Of a stretch of DNA of 64,000 nucleotides, positions 783 through 37,277 are shown one piece after another (position 1 is the first letter of the stretch; each line of letters begins with the position of its first letter). The position numbers were made by a program, and so were the translations under genes. The notes under the pieces were generated by a model. The model saw only the letters and a program-made list of their open reading frames with translations. It ran no database searches and was not told the origin of the DNA. Source of the stretch: Candidatus Woesearchaeota archaeon (GTDB lineage Archaea; Nanobdellota; Nanobdellia; SCGC-AAA011-G17; PNOQ01); NCBI GenBank assembly GCA_964474895.1, contig CAYYUK010000001.1, forward strand, positions 92,684 through 156,683, in the 5' to 3' direction.

Positions 783-852
783 TGTTGTTTACCTCTTGAT
801 TTCTCTTGGAAGTATTGATTTGGTTTAGTTTATAAGTGTTTCTATTGTGTTG

Positions 853-9200: not shown

Positions 9201-9788
9201 ATGGATTTTTTTGATGGAGCAAAGAAGGGCATAACTCTTGTATATGGCGAAAGTGCTACTGGTAAGACCACTTTTGGTTTGCAATCTTCATTGGCTATTG
9301 CCAAGAAAGGAAAAGTTTTGTTTCTGGATTGTGATGGAAGTTTCTCTCTTGATAGATTAAAAAAAATGGATCCTGATTGTCGGACATACTTAGATCATTT
9401 CCTTGTTGTTAATTTGAAAGACCTTTTGGAACTTGATTCTAAACTTGAACAATTTGAAAAGATGGTAGATAAATTTGATTTGGTTGTTTTGGACAATATT
9501 GGTTTATATTACAGACTTGGATTAAAAGAAAACTATGTTGTGACAAATAGTCTTATTGTTCGTATATTAAGGAAGCTTAGACATATGTCTGAAGAGATTC
9601 CAATTATAATAATTAGCCAAGTTTATGAAATTGATAAAGGGAAAAAGGTCCTCGGTGGTAAAATGGTTCAAAATTTCTCTGACATTGTATTAGAATTAAA
9701 TAAAGACCCAAGAAAAATTAAAATGTTAAAACCAGAAGAAAAAGAGATTTTATTTAAAATTGAAGATAGTGGTTTAGTTAAGATTTAG
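9201..9788 (+). CDS. radB: RadB-like recombinase paralogue (RecA-superfamily ATPase)
   Basis: Walker A GESATGKTT. VLDNI Walker B. IPIIIISQV. The overall order of motifs matches the short archaeal RadB proteins. Confidence 0.7.
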   Translation: MDFFDGAKKGITLVYGESATGKTTFGLQSSLAIAKKGKVLFLDCDGSFSLDRLKKMDPDCRTYLDHFLVVNLKDLLELDSKLEQFEKMVDKFDLVVLDNIGLYYRLGLKENYVVTNSLIVRILRKLRHMSEEIPIIIISQVYEIDKGKKVLGGKMVQNFSDIVLELNKDPRKIKMLKPEEKEILFKIEDSGLVKI

Positions 9789-11991
9789 TTTTCTTTTTTG
9801 TTGGTCTGTCATTTTCTATATATCTGCATCTGGGATAACCATCACAACTAATGAATAAACCATAAATTGATTTTCTAACTTTTAAATGTCCTTCCTTGCA
9901 GTTTGGGCACTTCTTTTTTAATTTTCCAGAGTCTATTGCTTTCATTTCTTTTAATTTTTCTTTTGATAGATGTCCTATTTTGGTTTTGCATGATGGATCT
10001 ATACACAAAATTTGTGGTTTTTTTCCTTTTTTAATTATTTTCAACTGTGGTTTTCCACATTCTTTGCAAAGTTCATCATGGGCTTTAACTAATGCACTTG
10101 GTAATGAATATATTGTTTTACATTTGGGATAACCGTTGCAAGCAATAAATCTTCCAAACTTACCAAATCTAATCATTAACTTTCCCTTTTCACAATTTGG
10201 ACATTTCCCAATAAGATTTTCATCTTTGGTTGCTTTTGCTAATGCTTTTCCAATTTCCAATTCATTTTTTTTAAATTTATTAATAATCGTTGTTAGAACT
10301 TTTCTTGCTTTTGCAAGTATTTTTTCTTCTGAGTGTTTATTGTCCATAATCTTTTCCATGTCTTCTTCGAATTCTCTGGTTAATTTTTCATCCAAAATTT
10401 CTGGAGCGTATTTTTCCAAATTTTTTATTAGTGCCATCCCTATTGGCGTTGCTTCTAACCTTATTCCATCAATATATCTTCTTTGGGATAGTGCATCTAC
10501 AATTATTGCTCTTGTTGATTTTGTTCCAAGTCTTAAACTTTCCATTTCTTTGATTATTGACGCCTGAGTATATCTTTTTGGTGGTTGTGTTTCTTTTTCT
10601 TCATCATTTATTTTTGGTTTTTTTACTTCGTCACCTTCATTAATATTTTTAATTATTATTTCTTTTGTGTCTACAAATCGCCCATATAGTTCATACCAAC
10701 CTTTTTCTACTATGATTGATCCTGAGAATGAAAATTCTTCTTTGTTAACATCAATTTTAACGTTTGTACTTTCTTTTCTTGCTGGGTCTCCGAATACTGC
10801 AAAAAATCTTCTTACAATTAGTTCATATAATAATTTTGACCTTCCACTAACTTTTCCCCTTTCCCCTGTGGGATAAACTGCGGGATGTGCTGGATCATCT
10901 TTTTTACCTTCATTTGGTTTTAATTTTGATTTTGATAACAACAATTCGCAAGATTTTGAGAAATCTTTATTTTTTGATAATTGTTTTAGAATCTTTTTAT
11001 AATTTATTGCTATTGGTAATTTTTGAGAACTAGTTCTTGGATATGAAATTAAACCTGCAGTGTAAAGATCTTGTGCTAGTTTTGAAGTTTCCTTAGGAGT
11101 TATTCTCAAGGCTCTAAATGCTTCTATTTGTAATGTTGTTAGATCAAACGGTGTTGGTGGATTTACAGTTGTTATTCTTTTAGTAATTTTTGAAACAATT
11201 GCTTTTTTGCCTTTTGTATTTTTTAGTATCTTAGTAACTTCTTCTTTTTTCTGAAACTTATCTTTCTTGTGTTTTGCTAATATTTTCTTTTTGTTTAGTT
11301 CGCCTTCTAAAAAGATTTCCCAGTATTTTTTAGGCTTAAATTTTTTTATGCTTTCTTCTCTTTTAACAATTAATTTTAATGTTGGACCTTGAACTCTTCC
11401 CGTTGACATTAACCTAAATCTTTTTGCTCCTTTTTTTATTGCTTGCGTTAATGCATTACTTAGGTTAATTCCGTAGTACCAGTCAAGTTTGTGTCTTGTT
11501 TTTCCAGCTTCAATCCTTGGAAAGTCCAAATGCTTGTTCGCTTTTTCATATGAGTCTATTAGTTCGTCTTTTGTTAATGTAGAGAACTTCATTCTTTTTG
11601 CATCTTTTTGTCCGCAAATGAATTTGATTACATTGAACCCTATAACAGATCCTTCTACATCGTAATCTGTTGCTACTGTGAATTTATCTGCTCTTTTTGA
11701 TAATTGTTTTAGAATATTTGCATAATTCCTGGTGTATTCTGCATGTTTATCAATCTCATATTTTGGTTTCCACTCTATGTCAAAATTTGGAAGTTTATTA
11801 GTTCCTTTTTTGGACTTTGCTAATCCAAATAAATGTCCAACTGCACAACCAACAAGAATTGATTTTCCTTTATGTTTTAACTCATAATACTTTACTTTGC
11901 CTACTGTTTTTTTTATTGGTTTTGTGTCTGCTAAGGCGGTTGCTATTTTCTCTGCTTGTGCTGGTTTCTCTGTAACAATTAGCTCTACCAT
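9778..11991 (-). CDS. topA: DNA topoisomerase I (type IA) with C-terminal C4 zinc ribbons
   Basis: Toprim N-terminus (LIVTEKP..., DYDVEG). Catalytic-Tyr region SYPRTSS. Three CxxC...CxxC zinc-ribbon modules at the C-terminus. Confidence 0.88.
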   Translation of the reverse strand: MVELIVTEKPAQAEKIATALADTKPIKKTVGKVKYYELKHKGKSILVGCAVGHLFGLAKSKKGTNKLPNFDIEWKPKYEIDKHAEYTRNYANILKQLSKRADKFTVATDYDVEGSVIGFNVIKFICGQKDAKRMKFSTLTKDELIDSYEKANKHLDFPRIEAGKTRHKLDWYYGINLSNALTQAIKKGAKRFRLMSTGRVQGPTLKLIVKREESIKKFKPKKYWEIFLEGELNKKKILAKHKKDKFQKKEEVTKILKNTKGKKAIVSKITKRITTVNPPTPFDLTTLQIEAFRALRITPKETSKLAQDLYTAGLISYPRTSSQKLPIAINYKKILKQLSKNKDFSKSCELLLSKSKLKPNEGKKDDPAHPAVYPTGERGKVSGRSKLLYELIVRRFFAVFGDPARKESTNVKIDVNKEEFSFSGSIIVEKGWYELYGRFVDTKEIIIKNINEGDEVKKPKINDEEKETQPPKRYTQASIIKEMESLRLGTKSTRAIIVDALSQRRYIDGIRLEATPIGMALIKNLEKYAPEILDEKLTREFEEDMEKIMDNKHSEEKILAKARKVLTTIINKFKKNELEIGKALAKATKDENLIGKCPNCEKGKLMIRFGKFGRFIACNGYPKCKTIYSLPSALVKAHDELCKECGKPQLKIIKKGKKPQILCIDPSCKTKIGHLSKEKLKEMKAIDSGKLKKKCPNCKEGHLKVRKSIYGLFISCDGYPRCRYIENDRPTKKKTKS

Positions 11992-16425: not shown

Positions 16426-17250
16426 TTATATGTCATCCAATACATTTTTTACTTTCTTCAATTGTTCTTTTGAAACATGTGTATAGATCTGTGTCGTCGA
16501 CAAATCAGAGTGCCCTAGTAGTTCTTGTATAATCCTTATATCTACGCCTTTATCTAAGTTATGTGTTGCAAAGCTGTGTCTTAGCTTGTGTGCAGTCACT
16601 TTCTTAGGGATTCCTGCTTTTTTTGAAATATTGCTTATGATTTTTTGTATGTTTCTTGTAGACAGATGCCCTTCATCCTTTCCTGGAAATAGATATTTTT
16701 CTTTTTCATCTAATGTTTGTATATGTTTTCTTAACTCTTCGCTTAGCTTCTCTGGAAAGAATATTGGTCTATCTTTTCCCCCTTTTCCTTCTCTAACCCA
16801 TGCTATGTTGTTTTTTATCTCAAGATCTGATATTTTTAGATTTACACATTCACTTACTCTGAGACCTGTTGCATATAATAATCTCATAATTAGCAGTGAT
16901 TTTTTTGAAGATGCTGCCTTGAATAGTTTTCTTATTTCTTCTTTTGTTAGAAAGACCGGAATCGATTTTGGGATTTTTGGTGTTTTGAAGGTTACTATGT
17001 TTTTTCCAATTACATTATCATAAAAGAACTTAATTGATGATTTTTTTATGGCTATTGATCTTGGACTTAGTTTTCTGTCTGAAATGAGTTCTGCAAAATA
17101 TAGTTTGAGGTCGTCCTCTTTATTTTCTATCGGGTCTCTTTTTGTTTTTTCTAGAAATAATCTTACATTTGCAAGATACGTGTCAACTGTCCTTTTGGAA
17201 AATCCTCTTAATTTCAACTCAACTTCTAGTTTTTTTAGGTAATTTTCCAC
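16426..17250 (-). CDS. xerA: Tyrosine recombinase, XerA/XerCD-like
   Basis: R..H.R.Y catalytic set with C-terminal HKLRHSFAT...LGHSDLSTTQIYTHV. The 274-aa size is typical of archaeal XerA. Confidence 0.88.
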   Translation of the reverse strand: MENYLKKLEVELKLRGFSKRTVDTYLANVRLFLEKTKRDPIENKEDDLKLYFAELISDRKLSPRSIAIKKSSIKFFYDNVIGKNIVTFKTPKIPKSIPVFLTKEEIRKLFKAASSKKSLLIMRLLYATGLRVSECVNLKISDLEIKNNIAWVREGKGGKDRPIFFPEKLSEELRKHIQTLDEKEKYLFPGKDEGHLSTRNIQKIISNISKKAGIPKKVTAHKLRHSFATHNLDKGVDIRIIQELLGHSDLSTTQIYTHVSKEQLKKVKNVLDDI

Positions 17251-18182: not shown

Positions 18183-18776
18183 ATGGGTTTTTTATTTTTT
18201 GGAAAAAAGAGGAATGATATTAACAAGAAGTTCTCCGATTTGCACACTAGCCTTACTGGTTCTTTTTCTAAAGTTAAAGAAGATATTACTTCTGCATATG
18301 AATTACTTGGAGATCTTAATAAACATAAAGAAATCCAAAAACAAACTCTTGACGGCATTGATTCTAGATTAAGTTATATTGAGGGTTTTATCGAGGAGTT
18401 TATTTCTGGACAGACAGCTGTCCAAACACGCTCTGTGTCTGAACAAACTCAAACAAACAGCCGTTCTAAACGGACGTCTGTCCATGTCCAAACAGAGATT
18501 TTAGCTGAATTGAGACGTTTGACACCCATGGAAAGGTCATTGGTTTGGGCATTATTAAACACCGATTTGAAACTCAGCTATACAGATTTGGCCAGGGTAT
18601 TGGGCAAAGATGAATCAACTGTGAGAGGACAAGTTAGTAATATAAGAAAAAAGACAGATGACCTGATAAGTGAGAGAAACGAAATTCATGGTCAAAAGAG
18701 ATTTTACATAGATGAGAGAGTAAAAAACAAGGTTTTGAGAGAATATAAGGTAAAAAATAAGAGAAATAGTAATTAG
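18183..18776 (+). CDS. Coiled-coil plus C-terminal LuxR/GerE- or HTH_10-type helix-turn-helix regulator
   Basis: LTPMERSLVWALLNTDLKLSYTDLARVLGKDESTVRGQVSNIRKK fits the sigma-70-region-4/LuxR HTH pattern. N-terminal coiled coil. Low-complexity linker. Confidence 0.5.
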   Translation: MGFLFFGKKRNDINKKFSDLHTSLTGSFSKVKEDITSAYELLGDLNKHKEIQKQTLDGIDSRLSYIEGFIEEFISGQTAVQTRSVSEQTQTNSRSKRTSVHVQTEILAELRRLTPMERSLVWALLNTDLKLSYTDLARVLGKDESTVRGQVSNIRKKTDDLISERNEIHGQKRFYIDERVKNKVLREYKVKNKRNSN

Positions 18777-18829: not shown

Positions 18830-19444
18830 TCATGAAAAAAGTTTTGTTTGAGAAGGATCTTTATGGTAATATAAGTTTGTGAGTCTTTCTTTTAAATTTA
18901 ACTCCCTGAAGTTTTGGGGTATTGTGAGAATAACCATCCTATTATTGACCTTTTGCTTTTCTAGAGGGAGTTCCTTTCGTATAATTGAGCTTGTATAGCT
19001 TCTTATGCATCCAGTAGAAAGCTTAAGTTTCGACGACAATTCTTCATATGTTACTCCCCTTCCAAGATCTTCTTCTAATTGGTATATCGTCAGAAATACC
19101 ATGAATTCTTGGTTGGTTATATCCCTAAATCTGTCTTCCATATTGCCCTTTATCTGTTTAATATCTATTGAATGGCTGTTGAATGAATGAATGTCTGTTG
19201 AATGAATGAATGAATGAACCCCTTCATTTCCGGTGGAACTTTTTGGGTTTTTGTGAGAGATTATTGTGTTTGGAAGCCCAGAACCCCTAAATTTGGGGGT
19301 TTCAGCCTTTTTTTGCTCTAATAATTCATCTAATTTTCCCAATATCTCTTTAAATTTGGTTTCTATTTCGGATATTCGGCTATTTATGTGTTCTATGTCC
19401 CTTTTTACTTCTGAGAAAGCAGATTTTATCCTTTGATTTACCAT
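18830..19444 (-). CDS. Coiled-coil plus C-terminal HTH regulator (paralogue-like of 18183..18776). The linker contains a coding (GAAT)n microsatellite.
   Basis: N-terminal coiled coil (DIEHINSRISEIETKFKEILGKLDEL). C-terminal HTH (VTYEELSSKLKLSTGCIRSYTSSIIRKEL). The linker encodes IHSFIHSTDIHSFNSHSIDIK from the GAATGAATG repeats. Confidence 0.5.
   Translation of the reverse strand: MVNQRIKSAFSEVKRDIEHINSRISEIETKFKEILGKLDELLEQKKAETPKFRGSGLPNTIISHKNPKSSTGNEGVHSFIHSTDIHSFNSHSIDIKQIKGNMEDRFRDITNQEFMVFLTIYQLEEDLGRGVTYEELSSKLKLSTGCIRSYTSSIIRKELPLEKQKVNNRMVILTIPQNFRELNLKERLTNLYYHKDPSQTKLFS
19166..19219. repeat. (TGAA/GAAT)n microsatellite with duplicated CTGTTGAATGAATGAATG unit. Further GTGAATGAATG copies lie at 19487-19539.
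   Basis: Direct read: ctattgaatggctgttgaatgaatgaatgtctgttgaatgaatgaatgaatgaacc. Confidence 0.6.
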
Positions 19445-23567: not shown

Positions 23568-23949
23568 ATCCTTGTATAGAGGTTTACACTATTTAAAATT
23601 ATATGTTGGGTCCCCTACCTTCTTTTCATGTGGAGTTGTATTAAATAACTTTTTTCTTGTGGAGATTTTTCTTTAGGTGTGTTTATTTTGATATTATTCG
23701 CTGTTTTTGTAATGGTTTTTTGCATTATTTATTGTTTTTATTTGTCGTTGCTGTTTTCTTGTTTTTAATATTTTGTTTATATGTTTTATTATTATATTAT
23801 ATGTTATATTATTATATTATATATTGAAATTTATAATTACTACAAAGTTCCACTTGAAAAAGAGGTTAAAGTTTCAAATAAATGTTTTCCATTGGAAATA
23901 TAGGTCTCTGTCTGATAATTCTTATATATGGTTGAGATAGTTTTGGTTT
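23568..23949. promoter_or_regulatory. Predicted replication origin (oriC): an AT-rich unwinding region plus ORB-like elements directly upstream of orc1/cdc6
   Basis: Mini-ORB-like dyad TTCCATTGGAAA at 23887-23898. Two direct repeats TTTTC(A/T)TGTGGAG at 23623-23637 and 23652-23666. Extreme AT tract with tandem ttattatattatat units at about 23700-23830. The adjacent gene order orc1-polD small-polD large is the classical archaeal origin context. Confidence 0.55.
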
Positions 23950-25296
23950 ATGGTAATTAAAAAGAGTGAGAAGAAAAAGAATAAAATTAAATTGATCGAA
24001 GACAAATCATTGAAAGATTATGTTAAAAATACATCTGAAGAAGGAATACACAAAATAGAAGAAGATTCAGGGGAAGACGATAAGAGTATTGCAACTGACG
24101 AAATAGATGGTTTCTTCGAGGATTTTTTAACCAAAGAATCAATATTTAAAGATAAACAAGTTTTGCAAGTTAGCTATACTCCAGATACAATACCACATAG
24201 GGAAAAGCAGATAAAAGAGATAGCATCAATTCTTGCACCCTCGCTGAGAAATGAAAAGCCTTCAAATATATTTTTATATGGTAAAACTGGTACTGGAAAG
24301 ACTCTATCTGTATTGCACGTTGTTAAGAAATTAAAGAATGTTGCGAAATTAAAGAAAGTTGAACTCAGTGTGTTTTATTTAAATTGTAAATTAAAGAGGG
24401 TTGCAGACACAGAGTATAGGCTTGTTGCAGCATTAGCAAGAGAATTTGGTGAAGATGTTCCATTTACAGGGCTACCTACTGATGAAATTTATCGTGTTTT
24501 TGTTAAATCGATAGATTCCAAAAGGAGGAATTTGATAATTGTTTTGGATGAGATAGATCAGCTGGTTAAGAAAATTGGAGATGAAATTTTGTATACTTTA
24601 ACAAGATTGAATTCAGAATTAAAACAGACAAAGATAACAATAGTGGGAATTTCTAATGATCTGCAGTTTGCAAATTATTTGGACCCAAGAGTAAAATCTT
24701 CTCTAACTGAAGAAGACATAAATTTTCCCTCATATAATGCATTACAACTACAAGATATACTTTCCCAAAGGGCAAATGAAGCATTCAACGAAAATGTTGT
24801 TTGTGAAGGAGTTATTAGTAAATGTGCTGCTTATGCAGCAAGAGAACACGGTGATGCAAGAAGGGCACTGGATTTGCTAAGGGTTGCCGGAGAGCTTACA
24901 GAAAGAGAAAATAATGAAAAATTAAGTATAAAATTTATTGATTCTGCAGAGGAAAAAATAGAAAGGGATTTGATTTATGATGCAATTAAAACGTTGCCAA
25001 AACAATCTCAAGTGGCATTACTTTCTATATTTGAATTGCATGTTAAGAGCACAGAGAAAGTTTTGACAGGGGAGGTTTATGAAAAATATAGGTCTCTTTG
25101 TTCTTCTTGTGGATTAAAAATGTTGACACAAAGAAGACTTTCAGATCTTATTTCAGAACTTGATTTGTTGGGGATAATTAATGCGAGAGTAATTAGTAAG
25201 GGCAGATATGGTCGTACAAGAGAAATAAAGTTGGCAGTTCCTGTAACAAATGTCAATATACTATCAAAGGAGCTAAAAACGTGGTTGGGAATTTAA
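23950..25296 (+). CDS. orc1: Orc1/Cdc6 replication initiator
   Basis: Walker A LYGKTGTGKT. Walker B VLDEID. C-terminal winged helix. TATA-like ttcttatatatgg at about -27. Confidence 0.92.
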   Translation: MVIKKSEKKKNKIKLIEDKSLKDYVKNTSEEGIHKIEEDSGEDDKSIATDEIDGFFEDFLTKESIFKDKQVLQVSYTPDTIPHREKQIKEIASILAPSLRNEKPSNIFLYGKTGTGKTLSVLHVVKKLKNVAKLKKVELSVFYLNCKLKRVADTEYRLVAALAREFGEDVPFTGLPTDEIYRVFVKSIDSKRRNLIIVLDEIDQLVKKIGDEILYTLTRLNSELKQTKITIVGISNDLQFANYLDPRVKSSLTEEDINFPSYNALQLQDILSQRANEAFNENVVCEGVISKCAAYAAREHGDARRALDLLRVAGELTERENNEKLSIKFIDSAEEKIERDLIYDAIKTLPKQSQVALLSIFELHVKSTEKVLTGEVYEKYRSLCSSCGLKMLTQRRLSDLISELDLLGIINARVISKGRYGRTREIKLAVPVTNVNILSKELKTWLGI

Positions 25297-26912
25297 CCAA
25301 TAAAATATCTTTTTTCTTGAAAAGGGGATATTTGCTTAATCCAGATATATTAAAAGTTATAGACGAAAGTCTTTTTGAAAGACTTGGAGGACAATTTGAA
25401 TCAGGAGATAAACCTGTTGTGTTGACCAAGGATATAAAAAAGATTTTAGAGAAGAAGGGATTTAAATTTAATGCAAATTGGAACGATTTCGAAAAGGCAA
25501 GGGTTGATTATGAAAAAGGGGAAGATAGTGAAGTTTATCTTACTTTTTTAGAAGTTTCAGATCATAACTTACCAAACGTGGTTGGGGAAGACAATATCCA
25601 AGAAAGAGAAGAAAATGTAGTTACAGAAGAAACTTCTGAAAATGGAGCATCAATGCCTATTGTTTTGAAAAATTATTGCGACAAGGGGGCAAAAGTAGAT
25701 GTTTCCTCTTTTGTTGCTTATTATAAAATTCGTTACAATTATCTGAGAAAAGTATTACAAACGAGAAATGGATTATCAGGGGTGCTCTCTATAAACAGGT
25801 TAGGAAACAAAAGGAAAGGCGAGAAAATATCTACAATGGGTATTGTGTATTCTAAAGAAACTACAAAAAATGGTCATGTTGTTTTGGAATTAGAAGATGT
25901 AACTGGAATGGTGAAGGTTTTAATTATGAAAACAAAAGATGATTTGTATAATGATGGAATTGACGTTGTTTGTGATGAAGTAATTGGTATAACTGGTGTT
26001 GTTGGAGATAAAATTATTTTTGCAGATAAAATATTTTTCCCAGAATTCCCAAAGAGTAATAATATTAAGAAGGGGGGGGTTGAAGAATATGCCGCATTTA
26101 TATCTGATGTTCATGTCGGGTCTGATGTTTTTTTGGAAGACAATTTTTTGAAATTCATAAATTGGATGAATGGCAATTATGGAAATAAAGAACAGAGGGA
26201 AAAAGGATCTAAAGTGAAATATCTATTTGTTGTTGGCGATCTTGTAGATGGTGTTGGGGTGTATCCTGGGCAAGAATCAAATTTGAAAATAAATGACATA
26301 ACAGCACAGTATAACCGATTAGCAGAATTATTTTCAATGATAAGAAAAGACATACAGATTATTGCTTGCCCAGGAGACCACGATGCATTAAGATTAGCAG
26401 AACCACAGCCTTATTTGGATAAATCAATTGCGGAATCTGTGTGGAATTTGGGCAATGTTACCCTTGTTACAAATCCTTCCTTGGTTAATGTTGGAGCCAC
26501 AAAAAACTTTGGGGGGTTTAATGTTTTGTTGTATCATGGACGTAGTTTTAGTTATTTTATAGATGTTTTGGATTCCGTTAGAGAGGCTGGGGGGTATGAT
26601 GGAATAGATTATCTTTTGAAATTATTACTAAAAAAGAGACACTTGGCACCAAGCCATGAATCAACGTTGACAGTTATCGATAAGGAAGAAGATGCAATGT
26701 TAATAGAAGAGGTTCCTGATTTTTTTGCAGTTGGGCATATCCATAGGTGTAAAGTCGAACAACATGGCGTGACAACTTTAATCTCTGGTAGTTGTTGGCA
26801 ACCCCTTACAGACTATCAAGAAAAGTTAGGGCATAATCCCGAACCTGCAAGAGTTCCAATAGTGAATTTGGAATCAAGGGAAGTTAGTGTTATGAAATTT
26901 ATAGATGATTAA
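25281..26912 (+). CDS. polD1: DNA polymerase II (PolD) small subunit DP1
   Basis: Calcineurin-like phosphoesterase motifs (DVHVG, GDLVDGVG, GDHD, VGHIH). Overlaps orc1 by 16 nt. Confidence 0.9.
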   Translation: MVGNLTNKISFFLKRGYLLNPDILKVIDESLFERLGGQFESGDKPVVLTKDIKKILEKKGFKFNANWNDFEKARVDYEKGEDSEVYLTFLEVSDHNLPNVVGEDNIQEREENVVTEETSENGASMPIVLKNYCDKGAKVDVSSFVAYYKIRYNYLRKVLQTRNGLSGVLSINRLGNKRKGEKISTMGIVYSKETTKNGHVVLELEDVTGMVKVLIMKTKDDLYNDGIDVVCDEVIGITGVVGDKIIFADKIFFPEFPKSNNIKKGGVEEYAAFISDVHVGSDVFLEDNFLKFINWMNGNYGNKEQREKGSKVKYLFVVGDLVDGVGVYPGQESNLKINDITAQYNRLAELFSMIRKDIQIIACPGDHDALRLAEPQPYLDKSIAESVWNLGNVTLVTNPSLVNVGATKNFGGFNVLLYHGRSFSYFIDVLDSVREAGGYDGIDYLLKLLLKKRHLAPSHESTLTVIDKEEDAMLIEEVPDFFAVGHIHRCKVEQHGVTTLISGSCWQPLTDYQEKLGHNPEPARVPIVNLESREVSVMKFIDD

Positions 26913-29900
26913 AATGGTTTTTAGTTTAGAGAAATATAATGAAGGATTAAATGAGAATGTAGATAAAGCATATTCTCTTGCAAAACTTGCCAAAGCAAAG
27001 GCATATGATCCCTTGGATATTGTTGAGATTCCTCTTGCCAAGAATATGGCAGAGAGAGTAGAGAGGTTGACCGGTGTGGCTGCTCCTCAAATAGTTGGAA
27101 AGGGAATACCGGATAGGATAGGGGAATTAGAAAAAAAATATGGAAAATTGGATTGGAGGGTTGCATTATCAATCGCCCATGAAGTAACACAAGAGAAATT
27201 CTGTAAATTTGAAAATAAAAAAGAGGCAATTGAAATTGGAATTAGGGTTGGGTTTGCATATGTTACTGTCGGTGTCGTTGCAAGTCCTCTTGAAGGATTT
27301 ACAGGAATAGATATTAGAAAAAGAAGGGACGGAAAGGAATATATTGCATTGTTATATTCAGGTCCTGTAAGAAGCGCAGGGGGAACTGCAGCATCTGTTT
27401 CTGTTTTAATTGCAGATTATATTCGGAAAAAGATGGGATATAGTGTATACGATGCTGATGAAAACGAAGCGAAGCGAGCAATAACTGAGCTAACAGATTA
27501 TCATGAGAGAATTACAAATTTGCAGTACTTTCCTTATCCTGAAGAGATAGAGTATCTGATTTTAAATCTTCCAGTACAAATAGACGGAGATCCAACCGAA
27601 AAGTTAGAAGTTTCAAATTATAAAGGGTTGGACAGGATTGCTACAAATAAGCTAAGGGGTGGGTTTTGTTTAGTTATAGGGGAATGTTTGGCTCAAAAAG
27701 CGAAAAAAGTTTTAAAGCAATTAGACTCATGGGGTGGCGATTTTGATTTGGGAGACTGGAATTTTATGGGTAAATTTTGCAAACTACAAACTAGGCTGAA
27801 GGCAAAACAGAAAGAGGATATAGTTGCAGAAAAAAAAGAAAAGGTTTCTCCAGATTATACTTTTATAAAAGATATAGTTGCAGGTAGACCCGTTTTAACA
27901 CACCCCTTATGCAAGGGAGGGTTTAGATTAAGATACGGTAGAACAAGAACAACAGGATTAAGTGCAACAGCAATACACCCTTTGACTATGAAAATTTTAA
28001 TGGATTATATTGCTATTGGAACACAATTGAAAGTTGAACGACCTGGCAAGAGTACTGTTCTTAGTTCGTGTGATTATTTGGAAGGACCCATAGTTAAACT
28101 GGTAAATGGAGATGTCGTTTTTTTAACTGAAGAAAATTATGATTTGGTGATTTCTAAAATATCTGAAATACTTTTTTTAGGGGACATTTTGATTCCATAT
28201 GGGGATTTTTTGAATAGGGCACATACACTAGTCCCCCCTGGATATTGTGAGGAATGGTGGTTAAAACATTTGCAAGCAAAAGGAAAATTTCCAGAGGATA
28301 TTTCAGAGATTACGGGTTTAGACATATTTCAAATTAAGAAACTTTTTGCAGATCCAATAAAAACAGTAATTTCTGCAGGGGATGCATACATTCTTTCTAA
28401 GATGGCAAAAGTACCTTTACACCCAAGATATACATACCATTGGAAAGATATTGATGTCAAAGAACTTCTTGTTTTATTAGGGTGGCTTGTTAAATCTACC
28501 ATAAAAAAGGGGGATCAATTTAAAATTATTTTTCCAATTGATTACGGGTCTGATGTTGTCGAACCAAAAATTATATTGGAAAAACTTGGAATCCCTCATA
28601 GAGTTGTTTCAAAAGAGTACATTGTTGTAGAAAATGAGTGGGCGATAGGACTTATGGCAAATCTTGGAATATATAGCAAAGATATCGACATTAAAGAATT
28701 AATAAAGAAAATAAATTCCAGTAAAGATGCTTTAGCTAACATAAACCTTTTTTCAGAAGTGGAAATAAAAGATAAATCTGGTTTGTCAATTGGTGCAAGA
28801 ATGGGCAGGCCAGAAAAAGCAAAGATGAGAAAACTAAAAGGCAGTCCACACGTTCTCTTTCCAGTTGGTTCCGAAGGTGGCAGACTTAGAAGTTTTAATG
28901 CTGCAATGGATAATGGAAAGATAAGATCGGAGTTCCCGATTTTTTTGTGTGAATCTTGCAATAGCGAAACAGTATATCCTTTTTGTGAGAAATGTGGTGC
29001 TAAAACAAGTAGACAATATTATTGTCCCAAATGCAAAAGAACAATGGGTACCAAAGACTGCCCACAACACGAGAAAAATAATCATTATTCCTATAGGGAC
29101 ATAGACGTAAACCATTATTGTAAAATTGCCAAAGAAAAGTTAGGCTTAACTGGGTTTCCTGATTTGGTTAAGGGAGTGAGGGGGGTTTCCAACGAAGAGA
29201 GAGCTATGGAGAATCTAACTAAAGGAATCCTTAGATCAATACATGGAGTAACAGTTAACAAAGATGGAACTGTTCGTTATGACATGACTGAAATGCCACT
29301 AACACATTTCAAACCTGTAGAAATTGGCACATCGGTAGACAAATTAATAAAATTAGGATATACTGAAGATATACATGGAGAAACTCTTGTAGATATTAAT
29401 CAAATTATACAGTTAATGCCCCAAGATGTTATTTTGCCTTCCTGTGAAGAGTCTTCAGAAGAAGGAGGGGATGCAATATTATTCAGGGTTGCTGGTTTTG
29501 TTGATGATCTTCTTCAATATTTTTATGGTTTGGAAAGATTTTATAATTTTAAATCTAAGGAAGACTTGGTTGGTCATCTAATAATAAGTCTTGCTCCACA
29601 TACGTCAGCAGGCGTAGTTGGAAGAGTGATTGGTTTTTCTAAAACACAGGGTTGTTATGCTAGCCCAATATGGCATTCTGCTCAAAGAAGAGATTGTGAT
29701 GGGGATGAAAATGGCATAATGCTGCTAATGGATGGGCTGTTGAATTTTTCTAGAAAATATTTATCAAGTCATAGGGGTGCGACACAAGATGCCCCCCTTG
29801 TATTAACCACGAATCTTATTTTAACAGAAGTTGATGATATGGTATTTGATGTTGATTGTTCATCCGAATATCCTCTCGAATTTTATAATGCATGTGAAGA

Positions 29901-30438
29901 GTATAAGATGCCTTGGGGAGTAAAGATTGAATCCATTGGGGATCATTTGGAAGAAGATGATTTTAAAATAGGATATACTCATGAAGTTAGTAATCTGAAT
30001 TCCGGTGTTAGATATAGTGCATACAAGAAGATACCGACAATGGCAGAGAAAGTAATTGGTCAAATGAAATTGGCAGAGATGATAAGGGCTGTTGACGAAA
30101 ATGATGTTGCGCGTTTAGTTATTGAAAGACATTTCATTAGAGACATTAAAGGAAATCTTAGGAAATTTAGCATGCAGCAGTTTAGGTGTGTAAATTGTAA
30201 TGAAAAATATAGAAGGCCCCCCTTGATTGGAAAGTGTCGCAAGTGTGGTGGAAAATTATTGTTTACTATATCTGAAGGTTCGGTAACAAAATATTTAACA
30301 CCTTCTTTGAATTTGGCTGAGAAGTATAAAGTTCCCACTTATACTTATCAGACTCTTGATTTAACCAGGAGAAGGATAGAAAGTGTTTTTGGAAAAGAAG
30401 CGGATAGACAAGAAGGATTGGGTCGTTGGTTTGGTTAA
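26905..30438 (+). CDS. polD2: DNA polymerase II (PolD) large subunit DP2
   Basis: 1177 aa. Cys clusters (CESCNSE...CEKCG, CVNCN...CRKCGG). Catalytic region CDGDENGIMLLMDG. Overlaps DP1 by 8 nt. Confidence 0.9.
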   Translation: MIKMVFSLEKYNEGLNENVDKAYSLAKLAKAKAYDPLDIVEIPLAKNMAERVERLTGVAAPQIVGKGIPDRIGELEKKYGKLDWRVALSIAHEVTQEKFCKFENKKEAIEIGIRVGFAYVTVGVVASPLEGFTGIDIRKRRDGKEYIALLYSGPVRSAGGTAASVSVLIADYIRKKMGYSVYDADENEAKRAITELTDYHERITNLQYFPYPEEIEYLILNLPVQIDGDPTEKLEVSNYKGLDRIATNKLRGGFCLVIGECLAQKAKKVLKQLDSWGGDFDLGDWNFMGKFCKLQTRLKAKQKEDIVAEKKEKVSPDYTFIKDIVAGRPVLTHPLCKGGFRLRYGRTRTTGLSATAIHPLTMKILMDYIAIGTQLKVERPGKSTVLSSCDYLEGPIVKLVNGDVVFLTEENYDLVISKISEILFLGDILIPYGDFLNRAHTLVPPGYCEEWWLKHLQAKGKFPEDISEITGLDIFQIKKLFADPIKTVISAGDAYILSKMAKVPLHPRYTYHWKDIDVKELLVLLGWLVKSTIKKGDQFKIIFPIDYGSDVVEPKIILEKLGIPHRVVSKEYIVVENEWAIGLMANLGIYSKDIDIKELIKKINSSKDALANINLFSEVEIKDKSGLSIGARMGRPEKAKMRKLKGSPHVLFPVGSEGGRLRSFNAAMDNGKIRSEFPIFLCESCNSETVYPFCEKCGAKTSRQYYCPKCKRTMGTKDCPQHEKNNHYSYRDIDVNHYCKIAKEKLGLTGFPDLVKGVRGVSNEERAMENLTKGILRSIHGVTVNKDGTVRYDMTEMPLTHFKPVEIGTSVDKLIKLGYTEDIHGETLVDINQIIQLMPQDVILPSCEESSEEGGDAILFRVAGFVDDLLQYFYGLERFYNFKSKEDLVGHLIISLAPHTSAGVVGRVIGFSKTQGCYASPIWHSAQRRDCDGDENGIMLLMDGLLNFSRKYLSSHRGATQDAPLVLTTNLILTEVDDMVFDVDCSSEYPLEFYNACEEYKMPWGVKIESIGDHLEEDDFKIGYTHEVSNLNSGVRYSAYKKIPTMAEKVIGQMKLAEMIRAVDENDVARLVIERHFIRDIKGNLRKFSMQQFRCVNCNEKYRRPPLIGKCRKCGGKLLFTISEGSVTKYLTPSLNLAEKYKVPTYTYQTLDLTRRRIESVFGKEADRQEGLGRWFG

Positions 30439-33828: not shown

Positions 33829-35091
33829 ATGGATTTGGAATATAAGAAATGGCTTCCTTTGATTGTTTTGTTAATCTTGATTCTTTCTCTTGTTGCATAT
33901 TTATTGTTTTTTAGATCTGGCATGGGTGAAGAAAGATTTGCTTCCAATCCTGTTCAAGGGTGTGTTGTTATGGCTGATAGGGGGCATTATGATGATAGCG
34001 TAGACATTGTTTTTTTATCTGAAAATTATAACGATATGTCAAAGTTTATTTCAGACACAATAAGTTTTAGGGAAAGTTTCTTGAATGTTGTACCGTACGG
34101 CGGGTATTCTGAAAGATTTAATTTTTTTAGATTGGAATCTTTTGAGAACTTGGGTTGTGAATATGATGGAGAATATGAAGGCGCAGTTGTATGTAATCCT
34201 TCAGATGTTAAGAAAGCCGCGTTAGGATGTCCTGCAGATTATTATATTGTTTTAGTAGATATTAATGGTGTTAAGAATTTTTTCGATCATTTAAGATCCA
34301 GTGCATGGAGGGGTATTGCTTCTTTAAATTCTGCTGATGACCCTCTTGTTTTTGCTCATGAATTTGCACATCTTTTTGCAGGATTACATGACGAGTATAC
34401 TTGGAATGGTGGAAAGATAATCGGCGCCTCTCCAAATTGTGATAGTGAATATAACTCTTGTCCAATGTTTGAAGGATTTGATGATGCAGGGTGTTATGTT
34501 GGGTGTGTGAATAACGAACATGCTAGGTCTGTGGATGTTGGAATAATGAGTGACTATTGGAAATCAAATAGTTATGGTTTGTTTAATGAATACATAATTG
34601 AAGAAGTTCTTCTTAAGAATAGTCTAAGCAATTTTGAAATAGGCACTGTTTCAATGTCCCCTAGTTTGGTCCCTCTCGGGGAACCAGAAGAAATTCTTTT
34701 GGTTGAATATTCCTGTAAAGGCGATAATTGCATAATCTCTTCTGTTTTTGAATCTGAAGGATATTCTTCAGATTACATCGATACTCTTTCTTTAAACCCT
34801 GCAATGTCTGTGGAATTAAGCAATGGAGATTCTTATTCTGTTGATTATCCAAATATTCTTTATATAGAAGGGCATAATTCTGATGGCACAATGATTGCAG
34901 ATCATAGGAAACTTAATGGGCTAACAGATTCTTTGATTGTGAAAAATCCTATGGAAAATGTTGAAATAAAGATAAAGAATGCAGCAGGAATGATATTGGA
35001 TACTTATGATTATATTTATGGGGCAGATAGTTCTCCATCTTATGTCGGAGGGTTTGGCAGCAAATTTGTGAAAGTGCGAGAAGTAATTTAA
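33829..35091 (+). CDS. Secreted or membrane-anchored HExxH zinc metalloprotease (M64-like)
   Basis: N-terminal TM/signal anchor. AHEFAHLFAGLHDEY zinc-binding motif. Many Cys residues. Confidence 0.5.
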   Translation: MDLEYKKWLPLIVLLILILSLVAYLLFFRSGMGEERFASNPVQGCVVMADRGHYDDSVDIVFLSENYNDMSKFISDTISFRESFLNVVPYGGYSERFNFFRLESFENLGCEYDGEYEGAVVCNPSDVKKAALGCPADYYIVLVDINGVKNFFDHLRSSAWRGIASLNSADDPLVFAHEFAHLFAGLHDEYTWNGGKIIGASPNCDSEYNSCPMFEGFDDAGCYVGCVNNEHARSVDVGIMSDYWKSNSYGLFNEYIIEEVLLKNSLSNFEIGTVSMSPSLVPLGEPEEILLVEYSCKGDNCIISSVFESEGYSSDYIDTLSLNPAMSVELSNGDSYSVDYPNILYIEGHNSDGTMIADHRKLNGLTDSLIVKNPMENVEIKIKNAAGMILDTYDYIYGADSSPSYVGGFGSKFVKVREVI

Positions 35092-37277
35092 TCTTCATAT
35101 ATCTCATTTATTATTCTTTCTATCTCTTCAGCTCTTTTTCCCCCAATTCCTTCTATTTTTTCTAGTTCTTCTTTTTTTGAGTTTGCTATCTTTTTTATTG
35201 ATTTTATTTTGATTAGAAGTGTTTTTGCAGTTTTTGGTCCTATTCCTGGCAGAGATTCTATTATGAATTCTTGTTGTTCTTTTGTTGTGATTGGTTTCCT
35301 CTCTAATCTTAAACCAATTTCTTTACTATTTGGTTTTTGTTCTCTTAGTGAAATTACTTTTATTAATTCTGCAGTGTCTTGTTGATTTTTTGTATAGATT
35401 ATTGGAATTCCAAAAGAGATTGCTATTGTAGATAGCATCCCTCTTATTGCATTTGGATGGATTTTTCTCATTGAATAAATATCTTCAGTTCCCTCCACAA
35501 TTACGATTGGTTTTTCGAAATTTTCTCTTAAACTTTTTATCTGTGAAAATATTCTTTTATCTATTAGTGAATCAACAAAATCCTTCACAGTTTTTCTTTC
35601 AATCCCGACCCTTTCTGAAACCATAAAGTCTGAAGTTGCTAATGCCTTTATTTTGATATTTATTCCTAAATCGTGAAGTTTTTTTGTTATCCCTGAGTTC
35701 GCTTCTCTTGAATCAACGTAGACAATAGATCCAGTTTCTTCTATAAAAGTTTTTAATGTTGGTTGTTTTTCAAGAGTTAATTTTTTATTAATCTCTTGCA
35801 AAGCAGAATACATTCTTTTTTCTTTGTGGTGTGAAACCCAAAAATTTATTTCATCTCTAGTGTTTTTTGTTATTAGTAAAATTATTTTTCCCTTATCATG
35901 TCTTGCAGTTCTGCCCCTCCTTTGGATAGATCTAATTGCAGAAGGTACTGGTTCATAAAAAATTACCAAATCTACTTTTGGTAGGTCCAAACCTTCTTCC
36001 CCAATTGAGGTTGAGATTAGACAATTATATATGCTATTTTCGAAATCTTTTATAATTGAAATTTGTTCTTTTTGATTTAGTTTTATTCCATCTTTTTTTG
36101 CTTGACCTACGAAGAGTTTTGCATTAATGTTTTCAATTTTATTTAGTTCGCCTTCCAATTCTTTTACCGAATCTCTGTAACTGTTGAATATGATTATTTT
36201 TACTGCAGGATCTTTTTTTATACTTTCCTTGACTATTTCTAGAAGTCTTTTTTGTTTTGGGTGTTTTACTTTTTTAAGAGCTAATTCTTTTGTTAAAATA
36301 TATGCTGATTTGAAATTTAAATCATTTGTCAGATTTATTACTGCTTTTGTTTTTGTCTTTGGATCTTCGAAGATAGTTTTTAGATATTTATGTAAAGAAT
36401 TTATTCCCTGAGTTTCTAGCATATCAATTGCATGATTTATTTTTATTGTTTCGGCAACAAGAGAAATCGATCTAAATGTATTATAATCTTTGCTTCCTCT
36501 CGCAATTTCTCCTTGGAGAGAAGCTTGCGCGCCAAGAAGTTCTTTTTTTATTGGTTGTCTTGATAGTTTTATTATTCCCTGTTTTCTTATTTCTGCTATC
36601 TTTTCGGTTAGTGAAGCAACCATCAGTTTTTTTATTTTTTTGAATTCTTCTGGAAGGTCAACCATCTCCTTTTCTATTATTAGTTCTTGGATGTATTCTT
36701 TTACATCAGGATCTTCTTCGGTCCTTGCTTCTATTTTTTTTGAATGTATATTTTTACATACTTCAAGTATTTTTTCTTTGTCTGATCCAGGAGAAGCTGT
36801 TAAACCAATCAATCTTTCAAATTTTGATTTTTTATGATATTCTTTTGCTATCCAGGTGTAAGAATAATCTTGCACTGCTCGATGTGCTTCATCTATTATT
36901 AATGTAGACACTTCTTTGAAGTCTATTGATTTATTTAGTAAATCATTTTCTATACACTGTGGTGTACTTACTATGATGCTTGAATTCTTCCACAATTCTT
37001 TTCTTTTGCTTGGCGGCACAGCCCCTGTAAAAAGAGTTACGTATTTTTCATCTGTGCTTTCTTTTATTTCATTATATATTTGGTTTGCAAGTGGTTTTGT
37101 TGGGGTTAAAAATAATGCTTTAGAATTTTTGTAATTTTCGAATCTTTTTATAATGGCCAATATTGCTATTTTGGTTTTTCCCATCCCTGTTGGTAATACT
37201 ACAAGTGTGTTATCTTTTAAACAAGAATAGAGTATTGTCTCTTGATATAATCGTGGCTTGAATTTAATTGTTGGCAT
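35088..37277 (-). CDS. hef: Hef (helicase-associated endonuclease for fork-structured DNA): SF2 helicase plus ERCC4 nuclease plus HhH2
   Basis: DEAH helicase motifs (VLPTGMGKT, IIDEAH). ERCC4 motif ERVGIERKTVKDF. C-terminal (HhH)2. Confidence 0.88.
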   Translation of the reverse strand: MPTIKFKPRLYQETILYSCLKDNTLVVLPTGMGKTKIAILAIIKRFENYKNSKALFLTPTKPLANQIYNEIKESTDEKYVTLFTGAVPPSKRKELWKNSSIIVSTPQCIENDLLNKSIDFKEVSTLIIDEAHRAVQDYSYTWIAKEYHKKSKFERLIGLTASPGSDKEKILEVCKNIHSKKIEARTEEDPDVKEYIQELIIEKEMVDLPEEFKKIKKLMVASLTEKIAEIRKQGIIKLSRQPIKKELLGAQASLQGEIARGSKDYNTFRSISLVAETIKINHAIDMLETQGINSLHKYLKTIFEDPKTKTKAVINLTNDLNFKSAYILTKELALKKVKHPKQKRLLEIVKESIKKDPAVKIIIFNSYRDSVKELEGELNKIENINAKLFVGQAKKDGIKLNQKEQISIIKDFENSIYNCLISTSIGEEGLDLPKVDLVIFYEPVPSAIRSIQRRGRTARHDKGKIILLITKNTRDEINFWVSHHKEKRMYSALQEINKKLTLEKQPTLKTFIEETGSIVYVDSREANSGITKKLHDLGINIKIKALATSDFMVSERVGIERKTVKDFVDSLIDKRIFSQIKSLRENFEKPIVIVEGTEDIYSMRKIHPNAIRGMLSTIAISFGIPIIYTKNQQDTAELIKVISLREQKPNSKEIGLRLERKPITTKEQQEFIIESLPGIGPKTAKTLLIKIKSIKKIANSKKEELEKIEGIGGKRAEEIERIINEIYED

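Follow-up and report, generated by a model that had tools for sequence, protein, structure and literature searches.

The subject of this analysis is a 382-bp spacer in a 64-kb stretch of archaeal DNA (the window, by which we mean the whole stretch analysed). The spacer, positions 23568-23949, lies in the open reading frame (ORF) map between a divergently transcribed gene of 94 amino acids (aa) and the operon orc1-polD(DP1)-polD(DP2), in agreement with the roughly 380 bp upstream of orc1/cdc6 given in the original prediction, which a model had made from the letters alone. We put at roughly 80% the probability that this spacer is the chromosomal origin of replication (oriC), or one of them, of a DPANN archaeon of the Woesearchaeota/Nanoarchaeota type, and that the origin is of the Orc1/Cdc6-dependent kind built on origin recognition boxes (ORBs). 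Adjacency to orc1, the ORBs, their inverted layout around an AT tract, a clustering not attributable to chance, and conservation in related genomes all support the origin interpretation at the level of sequence.

Because circularity was to be avoided, the ORB motif was learned on other genomes. Training used 80 loci from different Woesearchaeota/Nanoarchaeota genomes, located through Orc1. Across these loci the loose core TCCANNNGRAA occurs 6.3 times per kb in the 200 bp before orc1, about 2 times per kb in the next 400 bp, and about 0.15 times per kb elsewhere, a roughly 40-fold enrichment upstream of orc1. Alignment of the orc1-upstream sites gave a 26-nt consensus, TTTCCATAGGAAATCAAGGGGTGGGG, consisting of a dyad plus a G-rich tail, a textbook ORB. 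The 26-nt matrix was made from orc1-upstream sites of other genomes only, with the close relative L010 left out (labels of this form are our own locus numbers). Scanning the window with it (128 kb of strand) returned five matches of at least 18 bits, with the next best at no more than 9 bits, while first-order Markov simulations of the window gave an expectation of 0.09 matches of at least 18 bits and a mean best score of 13.3 bits. ORB-like words at equal density throughout, an outcome the original prediction had named as fatal to itself, are therefore not what the window holds under the full motif. Three of the five strong matches, here called ORB-d (25.6 bits), ORB-a (20.4 bits), and ORB-c (18.5 bits), fall within the spacer; the binomial probability that three of five random positions in 64 kb land in a given 382 bp is about 2e-6 (calculated by hand).

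Significance arises only with the full 26-nt ORB model together with clustering. The 12-13-mers picked out in the original prediction are no evidence alone, because short words are not enriched, and the full-length matrix was used for that reason: in the window, compared with dinucleotide shuffles, TTCCATTGGAAA with at most two mismatches gave 16 matches against 18 expected, the repeat word 6 against 8.8, and a third short word 11 against 8.5. The same matrix assigns Pyrococcus furiosus ORB1 21.1 bits and ORB2 20.1 bits (oligonucleotides from PMC1904270), ORB3 13.1 bits and the mini-ORB 12.8 bits, and it gives a non-binding P. furiosus ORB1 mutant -8.6 and a control -11. The ORB1 and ORB2 oligonucleotides bind Cdc6/Orc1 in gel shifts (PMC1904270). 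Because a matrix that finds the four boxes of the spacer also recognises the bound P. furiosus ORBs at 20-21 bits, the spacer boxes are, judged by sequence, canonical ORBs. The features of the spacer, from left to right, are as follows.

23568-23949, no strand assigned: predicted oriC spacer, with a pair of ORBs on each side of an AT/T-rich unwinding element and two putative divergent promoters at its flanks.
23590-23604, minus strand: putative TATA box of the divergent 94-aa gene, TATTTAAAATTATAT, recognised by eye and almost invariant in five relatives.
23611-23636, minus strand: ORB-a, a full ORB, ACTCCACATGAAAAGAAGGTAGGGGA, with tail AAGGTAGGGG; 20.4 bits by the matrix from other genomes.
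23640-23665, minus strand: ORB-b, a weak, mini-ORB-like box with core only, TCTCCACAAGAAAAAAG; 7.3 bits.
23666-23846, no strand assigned: candidate DNA-unwinding element; of its 181 bp, 83% are AT, and T makes up 61% of the plus strand (110 T, 41 A).
23782-23823, plus strand: a 20-22-nt unit of A and T only, TGTTTTATTATTATATTATATG, present as a tandem pair and found by repeat search; core of the least stable DNA.
23847-23872, plus strand: ORB-c, GTTCCACTTGAAAAAGAGGTTAAAGT / GTTCCACTTGAAAAAGAGGT; 18.5 bits.
23886-23911, plus strand: ORB-d, TTTCCATTGGAAATATAGGTCTCTGT, containing the palindromic dyad TTCCATTGGAAA at 23887-23898; 25.6 bits, the top match of the window.
23922-23929, plus strand: putative orc1 TATA box, TTATATAT, 21-28 nt before the ATG, recognised by eye from the general archaeal promoter layout and conservation.

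The boxes run minus, minus, AT tract, plus, plus, and all four turn their dyad ends towards the tract. ORB-a has a G-string that extends to 23608, with its dyad end towards the AT tract, and forms with ORB-c an inverted repeat of 18 nt that is 83% complementary (repeat search). The core of ORB-b is TCCAYWTGRAAA with one mismatch. The dyad within ORB-d had been placed correctly in the original prediction. Two direct repeats, TTTTC(A/T)TGTGGAG, had been reported between 23623 and 23666; both exist, as TTTTCATGTGGAG at 23623-23635 and TTTTCTTGTGGAG at 23652-23664, 29 bp from start to start, although the right end had been set 2 nt too far, and they are not a separate element: each is the ORB motif read on the opposite strand (CTCCACATGAAAA / CTCCACAAGAAAA). 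That earlier inventory of boxes was also incomplete, with the fourth box at 23847-23872 overlooked.

Both outer boxes adjoin a putative promoter. ORB-d ends 10 nt upstream of the putative orc1 TATA box, and ORB-a begins 6 nt from that of the 94-aa gene. From its spacing to the ATG, the putative orc1 TATA box would give a leaderless or near-leaderless orc1 mRNA. An Rfam scan found no RNA family in the spacer and only two tRNAs in the window; a non-coding RNA gene in the spacer was dropped as a candidate on this result.

The AT tract between the facing boxes is the most AT-rich part of the window: 23690-23839, at 84.7% AT, is the top 150-bp stretch in 64 kb, and the tract also ranks first at 100 bp (89%) and 200 bp (83%). 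Its lead over other AT-rich intergenic stretches is modest, the runners-up reaching 83-86% AT, and the word extreme, as first applied to it, slightly overstates the case. The description of the tract as built of ttattatattatat units from about 23700 to 23830 holds for the two copies of the 20-22-nt unit only, which cover about 23782-23823 and are near-identical in close relatives. Calculated duplex stability bears out the tract as a plausible unwinding element. The window's 60-bp minimum of nearest-neighbour stability lies at 23779-23838 (-52.7 kcal/mol, against a window mean of -72.8 and a standard deviation of 4.2), and the minima at 100 and 150 bp also fall in the tract. Its T fraction is the highest among 180-bp stretches on both strands of the window. 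Orc1 of Aeropyrum favours T-rich single-stranded DNA (PMC8287685), and by analogy the T-richness of the tract fits that preference. A small GC-containing block, TCGTTGCTG, at about 23748-23757 interrupts the tract; it reads TCGACGCTG in relatives and is conserved down to an Orc1 identity of 83%, while L008, at 80%, does not share it.

Comparison with related loci separates what is kept in the spacer from what drifts. Five close relatives (L005, L007, L008, L009, and L010; Orc1 identity 80-88%) are syntenic; every box keeps its place in them, whereas the DNA separating the boxes drifts. ORB-d, at 23.9-26.2 bits in these five, is nearly invariant in alignments and, with the adjoining TATA region, forms the most conserved block of the spacer. 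Equivalents of ORB-a score 15.7-29.7 bits in L005, L007, L008, and L009, those of ORB-c 9.6-22.3 bits in relatives, and a second left box of about 12 bits occupies the ORB-b position in L007 and L009. The layout itself extends much further. Among 63 more distant Woesearchaeota/Nanoarchaeota loci with at least 1 kb of upstream sequence, 56 show a minus-strand box and then a plus-strand box with nothing between. The gap enclosed by this facing pair has a median length of 226 bp (interquartile range 153-315), and in 55 of 56 cases its AT content exceeds that of its own locus (medians 84% and 66%).

Many distant relatives (L024, L035, L045, L052, L055, L057, and L059 among them) have an extra minus-strand ORB, consensus TTCCAnAaGAAATgaAGGTTTatAAAt, between a TTTATAAA box and the orc1 start codon. 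Such a start-codon-proximal site suggests, from its position in the sequence, direct autorepression by Orc1, a second role for the boxes. The window's clade differs from these relatives in having ORB-d upstream of the TATA box instead of between the box and the start codon.

A separate observation concerns the assemblies. Contigs of metagenome-assembled genomes (MAGs) end 80-555 bp upstream of orc1 in 17 of 80 cases, far above expectation for contigs of tens of kb (L014, L018, L022, L023, L027, L028, L032, L038, and L039; further, L040, L047, L049, L056, L065, L072, L073, and L080). Assemblies appear to break at the very AT-rich origin, and the origins of this group are probably often absent from MAGs or truncated in them.

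The gene to the right of the spacer encodes an initiator, and it heads an operon for DNA polymerase D.

23950-25296, plus strand: orc1/cdc6 initiator gene, 448 aa, Orc1-1 type; Pfam Cdc6_C (100 bits), Cdc6_lid (79.7 bits), and AAA.
25281-26912, plus strand: PolD small subunit (DP1); Pfam DNA_pol_E_B and Metallophos; overlaps the orc1 end.
26905-30438, plus strand: PolD large subunit (DP2); Pfam PolC_DP2 N-terminal, central, and catalytic domains, E-values 1e-84 to 1e-112.

Orc1 matches the NCBIfam equivalog NF001625 (ORC1-type replication protein) at 540 bits against a cut-off of 501. It aligns over about 370 residues to Sulfolobus solfataricus Orc1-1 (2QBY_A; E-value 4.5e-109, 368 bits) and also to Aeropyrum pernix ORC1 (2V1U; E-value 2.2e-102, 346 bits); both are crystal structures of complexes with ORB DNA. 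Relative to both structures the winged-helix motifs TQRRLSD and GRYGRTRE are kept, and they vary little or not at all among 34 Woesearchaeota-type Orc1 sequences. Identical Orc1 (100%) occurs on metagenomic contigs of up to 317 kb, and the named relatives are all 'Candidatus Woesearchaeota', Nanoarchaeota, or Pacearchaeota. The order Orc1/Cdc6, PolD small subunit, PolD large subunit, with overlapping ends, had been likened to the Pyrococcus oriC locus; Pfam assignments uphold it, and DP1 directly follows orc1 in 76 of 78 related loci, with DP2 downstream in 73. Orc1 is 448-455 aa long in this clade, against about 402 aa in most Woesearchaeota. The extra 46 or so residues (window 23950-24090) follow the start codon and are rich in Lys, Glu, and Asp, with low complexity. 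The start codon appears homologous, because in L008, whose Orc1 has 402 aa, ORB-d stands about as far from the ATG.

The elements described so far, their statistics and conservation, and the identity of the initiator are direct observations. The course of events from Orc1 binding and melting to MCM loading and firing, like autoregulation, is proposed by analogy with Sulfolobus, Aeropyrum, and Pyrococcus (PMC5333045, PMC3089459, PMC1904270). The Orc1 encoded immediately downstream would bind the four ORBs as monomers, its winged-helix domain on the TCCA...GAAA dyad and the initiator-specific motif of its AAA+ domain on the AAGGT/G-rich tail. Binding would bend and underwind the DNA, MCM would be recruited to the least stable, T-rich 181-bp tract between the facing boxes, and replication would proceed in both directions, co-oriented with most flanking genes. 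Because the outermost boxes abut the two divergent putative promoters, Orc1 occupancy probably also tunes transcription of its own operon, orc1-DP1-DP2.

Gene orientation in the window changes at the spacer. The change-point that maximises genes pointing away is 23758; 76% of coding bases to the left of the spacer lie on the minus strand, where the block next to the spacer comprises the 94-aa ORF, a PRC-barrel protein, and ArgRS, and 75% of those to the right lie on the plus strand. The raw cumulative GC skew has a turning point at about 23-24 kb, from which it climbs, mostly because of coding strand: skews are +0.24 to +0.32 in plus-strand genes and -0.13 to -0.03 in those on the minus strand.

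Several points count against an origin at this spacer. GC skew corrected for strand rises by about 0.1 from left to right (log-likelihood difference 12.5), with a break that is not localised: the likelihood is flat over 9-30 kb, and a break at 45.7 kb is equally good. In the pooled 4-kb flanks of the 80 related loci, plus-strand and minus-strand genes contradict each other in the sign of the skew. With the break unlocalised and the pooled signs inconsistent, skew is not used here as support. The G-string is not clean in ORB-c or ORB-d, and ORB-b is weak at 7.3 bits. ORBs of equal strength also occur twice outside the spacer, at 19214 and 787, which means that a single ORB is not diagnostic of an origin. 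The window covers 64 kb of a genome of probably about 1 Mb, and there may be a second origin elsewhere. Finally, Thermococcus kodakarensis has an intact yet dispensable oriC/cdc6 (PMC5663688). Beside the probability given to a chromosomal origin, the remainder goes to regulatory operators only, to a dormant or dispensable origin as in T. kodakarensis, and to minor alternatives.

The most serious competing explanation, though an unlikely one, treats the spacer as a divergent promoter/operator only: its ORBs would be operators for Orc1 autoregulation of orc1-polD and of the 94-aa gene, and replication would begin elsewhere or independently of an origin. Distances of 10 nt (ORB-d) and 6 nt (ORB-a) to the putative TATA boxes would suit such operators, as would the minus-strand ORB that distant relatives place between the TTTATAAA box and the orc1 start; the same boxes could, however, serve an origin and autoregulation alike. 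Sulfolobus Orc1 paralogues are reported to act as transcription regulators (PMC6061795, PMC9738581), but the protein encoded here is of the initiator (Orc1-1) type and not of the Orc1-2 regulator type. The dispensability of oriC and cdc6 in T. kodakarensis (PMC5663688) offers a precedent for replication without this locus, while ORC1/Cdc6 is reported among the single-copy core genes of 208 closed Nanobdellota genomes (preprint 10.64898/2026.05.13.725050), so that some origin in the phylum must use Orc1. Strong ORBs at the non-origin places 19214-19239 and 787-812 also favour operators, but operators alone leave unexplained both the conserved gap of about 200 bp and 84% AT between facing boxes in 56 of 63 genomes and the fact that the gap in the window has its lowest duplex stability.

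Far less probable is an origin belonging to an integrated or extrachromosomal element, a virus or plasmid that encodes an Orc1 for itself. An orc1 gene beside an origin is frequent on archaeal mobile elements, and a tyrosine recombinase gene lies 7 kb to the left of the spacer:

16426-17250, minus strand: XerA-type tyrosine recombinase; NF040815, 264 bits against a cut-off of 220.

This recombinase is the XerA equivalog, and XerA is the chromosomal dimer-resolution enzyme. The neighbours are core housekeeping genes (ArgRS, SerRS, PolD, PolB, topoisomerase, CDC48, and Hef), synteny in this neighbourhood extends to deeply divergent genomes, and identical sequence occurs on contigs of 190-320 kb. 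Metagenomes with the identical sequence include JGI 3300028173 and ENA ERZ27237645 and ERZ27245991. The integrated-element origin was rejected on the equivalog status of the recombinase, the housekeeping context, and the deep synteny.

Chance, by which ORB-like words and an AT tract would simply have arisen in an ordinary spacer beside orc1 in a 68% AT genome, can point to the unenriched short words and to other intergenic stretches of 83-86% AT, but it is already refuted as far as sequence statistics allow by the five full-motif matches against 0.09 expected (three of them within 382 bp, with a motif from other genomes), the roughly 40-fold enrichment over 80 loci, and the inverted layout in 56 of 63.

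The ORBs outside the spacer, introduced above as points against a chromosomal origin there, are placed as follows.

787-812, minus strand: isolated strong ORB, CTTCCAAGAGAAATCAAGAGGTAAAC, 19.2 bits, just upstream of the ATG of a minus-strand gene running off the window start.
18830-19444, minus strand: gene for a 204-aa protein with coiled coil and winged helix, hosting the outlying ORB; an in-frame (TCAT)n array lies in a disordered linker.
19214-19239, minus strand: outlying full ORB, GTTCCACCGGAAATGAAGGGGTTCAT, 25.6 bits, 4.4 kb left of the origin, oriented as the left-arm boxes, inside coding sequence.

The ORB at 19214-19239 encodes S-T-G-N-E-G-V. It recurs in the orthologous gene of L005, L007, L008, and L009 at 26.5-30.7 bits, and in homologous genes 1.9-3.8 kb from orc1 at seven distant loci. 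Database homologues of the 204-aa protein have, in 68 of 69 cases, S-x-G-N-x-G-x at the position of the box, together with a stretch of 4-residue periodicity. The gene is close to the origin in all genomes examined. Three further family members chosen blind to genome position all proved to lie 3.6-6.6 kb from orc1, across the origin and transcribed away from it, with a box of 26.8-29.6 bits. Codon usage in the box is uniform in eight independent lineages (TCC, GGA, AAT, and GGG in 8 of 8 each, with Val as GTT or GTC), while the conserved winged-helix residues of the protein use 2-4 synonymous codons. Counting conserved residues of at least four-fold degeneracy, 3 of 4 columns are codon-invariant in the box against 1 of 20 elsewhere (Fisher's exact p about 0.008, by hand). 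On these sequence comparisons, the intragenic ORB is under nucleotide-level selection.

The AlphaFold model of the 204-aa protein (mean predicted local distance difference test score, pLDDT, 78.5) has a helix at residues 2-47, disorder at 49-83, and a winged helix-turn-helix at 94-173; the intragenic ORB is predicted to fall in the disordered linker, residues 49-83. Directly 3' of it, at about 19150-19213 on the minus strand, stands the in-frame tetranucleotide array, which always accompanies the intragenic ORB and whose unit varies by clade: (TCAT)n in the window and (TCAA)n, (ACAA)n, (ACAG)n, or (GCAA)n elsewhere, with peptide repeats HSFI, QSIN, NKQT, TDRQ, or SKQA, usually in two blocks of 3-4 units. 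The array is also found in L058, L074, L081, L082, L085, L087, and L090-L092. Phase variation through it is unsupported, the length being identical in five close relatives and four population samples. In sequence terms, a tolerant part of the protein seems to house a DNA element. No curated family matched the 204-aa protein above cut-off, and identities as WhiP/Cdt1 or as DnaD-like were set aside, the matches being a sub-threshold Pfam hit (DnaD_N, E-value 0.015) and generic MarR/MepR folds (E-values of about 5e-3).

The nearest precedents for such an intragenic element are the dp1 cluster of Pyrococcus (PMC1904270) and the whiP repeats of Sulfolobus (PMC3607249). We propose tentatively, at less than even odds, that the intragenic ORB is a functional Orc1 site, either an accessory part of the origin or a coupler of Orc1 occupancy to expression of an origin-associated DNA-binding factor. 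If so, the origin system of this lineage extends beyond the spacer. The neighbouring gene at 18183-18776 (plus strand) encodes 197 aa in a similar layout, with a helix at the N-terminus and, at the C-terminus, a region resembling a winged helix (Pfam WHD, E-value 0.0018, below cut-off); it has no ORB and may be a paralogue of the ORB-bearing gene. In the ORB at 787-812, the tail overlaps a Shine-Dalgarno-like AGAGGT (context from six-frame translation), and from this placement the site may be an Orc1-regulated promoter.

The neighbourhood of the predicted origin, positions 1 to 37300 of the window, abounds in genome-maintenance genes: a family-B DNA polymerase (1769-4084), CDC48 (5469-7763), a type IA topoisomerase (9778-11991), XerA, Orc1, DP1/DP2, and a Hef-like helicase/ERCC4 nuclease (35088-37277). 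An integrase-family gene similar to that of XerA, adjoining a PAC2-family gene, is present in the same neighbourhood in L090-L092.

Woesearchaeota and Nanoarchaeota, among the DPANN, are uncultivated archaea with small genomes. ORBs and origin anatomy of Woesearchaeota or Nanobdellota have never been described in the searchable literature, where origins are only assumed through rotation to ORC1; the preprint on closed Nanobdellota genomes rotates them in this way, with no ORB or skew analysis (10.64898/2026.05.13.725050). The element is as a specialist would expect beside orc1, and it overturns nothing. The analysis supplies an origin anatomy with coordinates, the lineage-wide consensus TTTCCATAGGAAATCAAGGGGTGGGG, and a conserved layout in which two boxes enclose an AT gap of about 226 bp ahead of orc1-DP1-DP2. 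By sequence, the canonical ORB code extends into the DPANN almost unchanged. With this anatomy, MAG assemblies can be oriented and checked, closed genomes given a zero point, growth-rate estimates from metagenomic peak-to-trough ratios interpreted, and Orc1-binding experiments designed.

Among known systems, oriC3 and whiP of Sulfolobus resemble the locus in the intragenic ORB only, as an origin-linked winged-helix gene with internal conserved repeats bound by an initiation factor (PMC3607249). The sites differ, an Orc1-type ORB plus a tetranucleotide array here against AT-rich WhiP sites there, and the 204-aa protein has only a generic MarR-like fold, with no Cdt1/WhiP relationship detected. 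The origin of Methanothermobacter thermautotrophicus is likewise adjacent to orc1 in an AT-rich genome with PolD, and both ORB-b and the cores (12-13 nt) of the other three boxes resemble mini-ORBs. That origin is reported to have many tandem 13-bp mini-ORBs bound cooperatively (PMC1904270), whereas the spacer here has few, longer boxes in an inverted layout.

Closer in their initiator are oriC1 of Sulfolobus and oriC1 of Aeropyrum, whose Orc1-1 proteins (2QBY, 2V1U) are the closest solved relatives of the Orc1 encoded here (E-values 1e-102 to 1e-109). In those systems too the origin adjoins its cognate orc1, and ORBs with dyad and G-rich tail flank an AT-rich unwinding element, an arrangement that is the general definition of an archaeal origin (PMC5333045). 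Several origins and Orc1 paralogues are present there, against apparently one initiator here; Sulfolobus ORBs are 36 bp long, against a conserved 24-26 nt or so; and binding and firing are demonstrated there, while here they are predicted from sequence.

The oriC of Pyrococcus differs in having a cluster of ORBs in dp1, where the matrix scan of DP1 here (25281-26912) found none above 9 bits, the nearby weak matches of 7.2 bits lying in orc1. The outlying ORB here lies instead across the origin from dp1, within a winged-helix gene specific to the lineage. The boxes number four here against two ORBs and many mini-ORBs in Pyrococcus, the tail is AAGGTGT-like against AAACTCTGGGGG, and the genome here is of mesophile type at 32% GC, with an origin far more AT-rich. 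The likenesses are nonetheless structural: both systems have an outlying ORB site in neighbouring coding sequence (the dp1 cluster, in Pyrococcus; PMC1904270), both surround AT-rich DNA with inverted full ORBs having a TTCC...GAA core and with shorter mini-ORB-like boxes, and here, as in the Thermococcales generally, the order is origin, orc1/cdc6, dp1, dp2.

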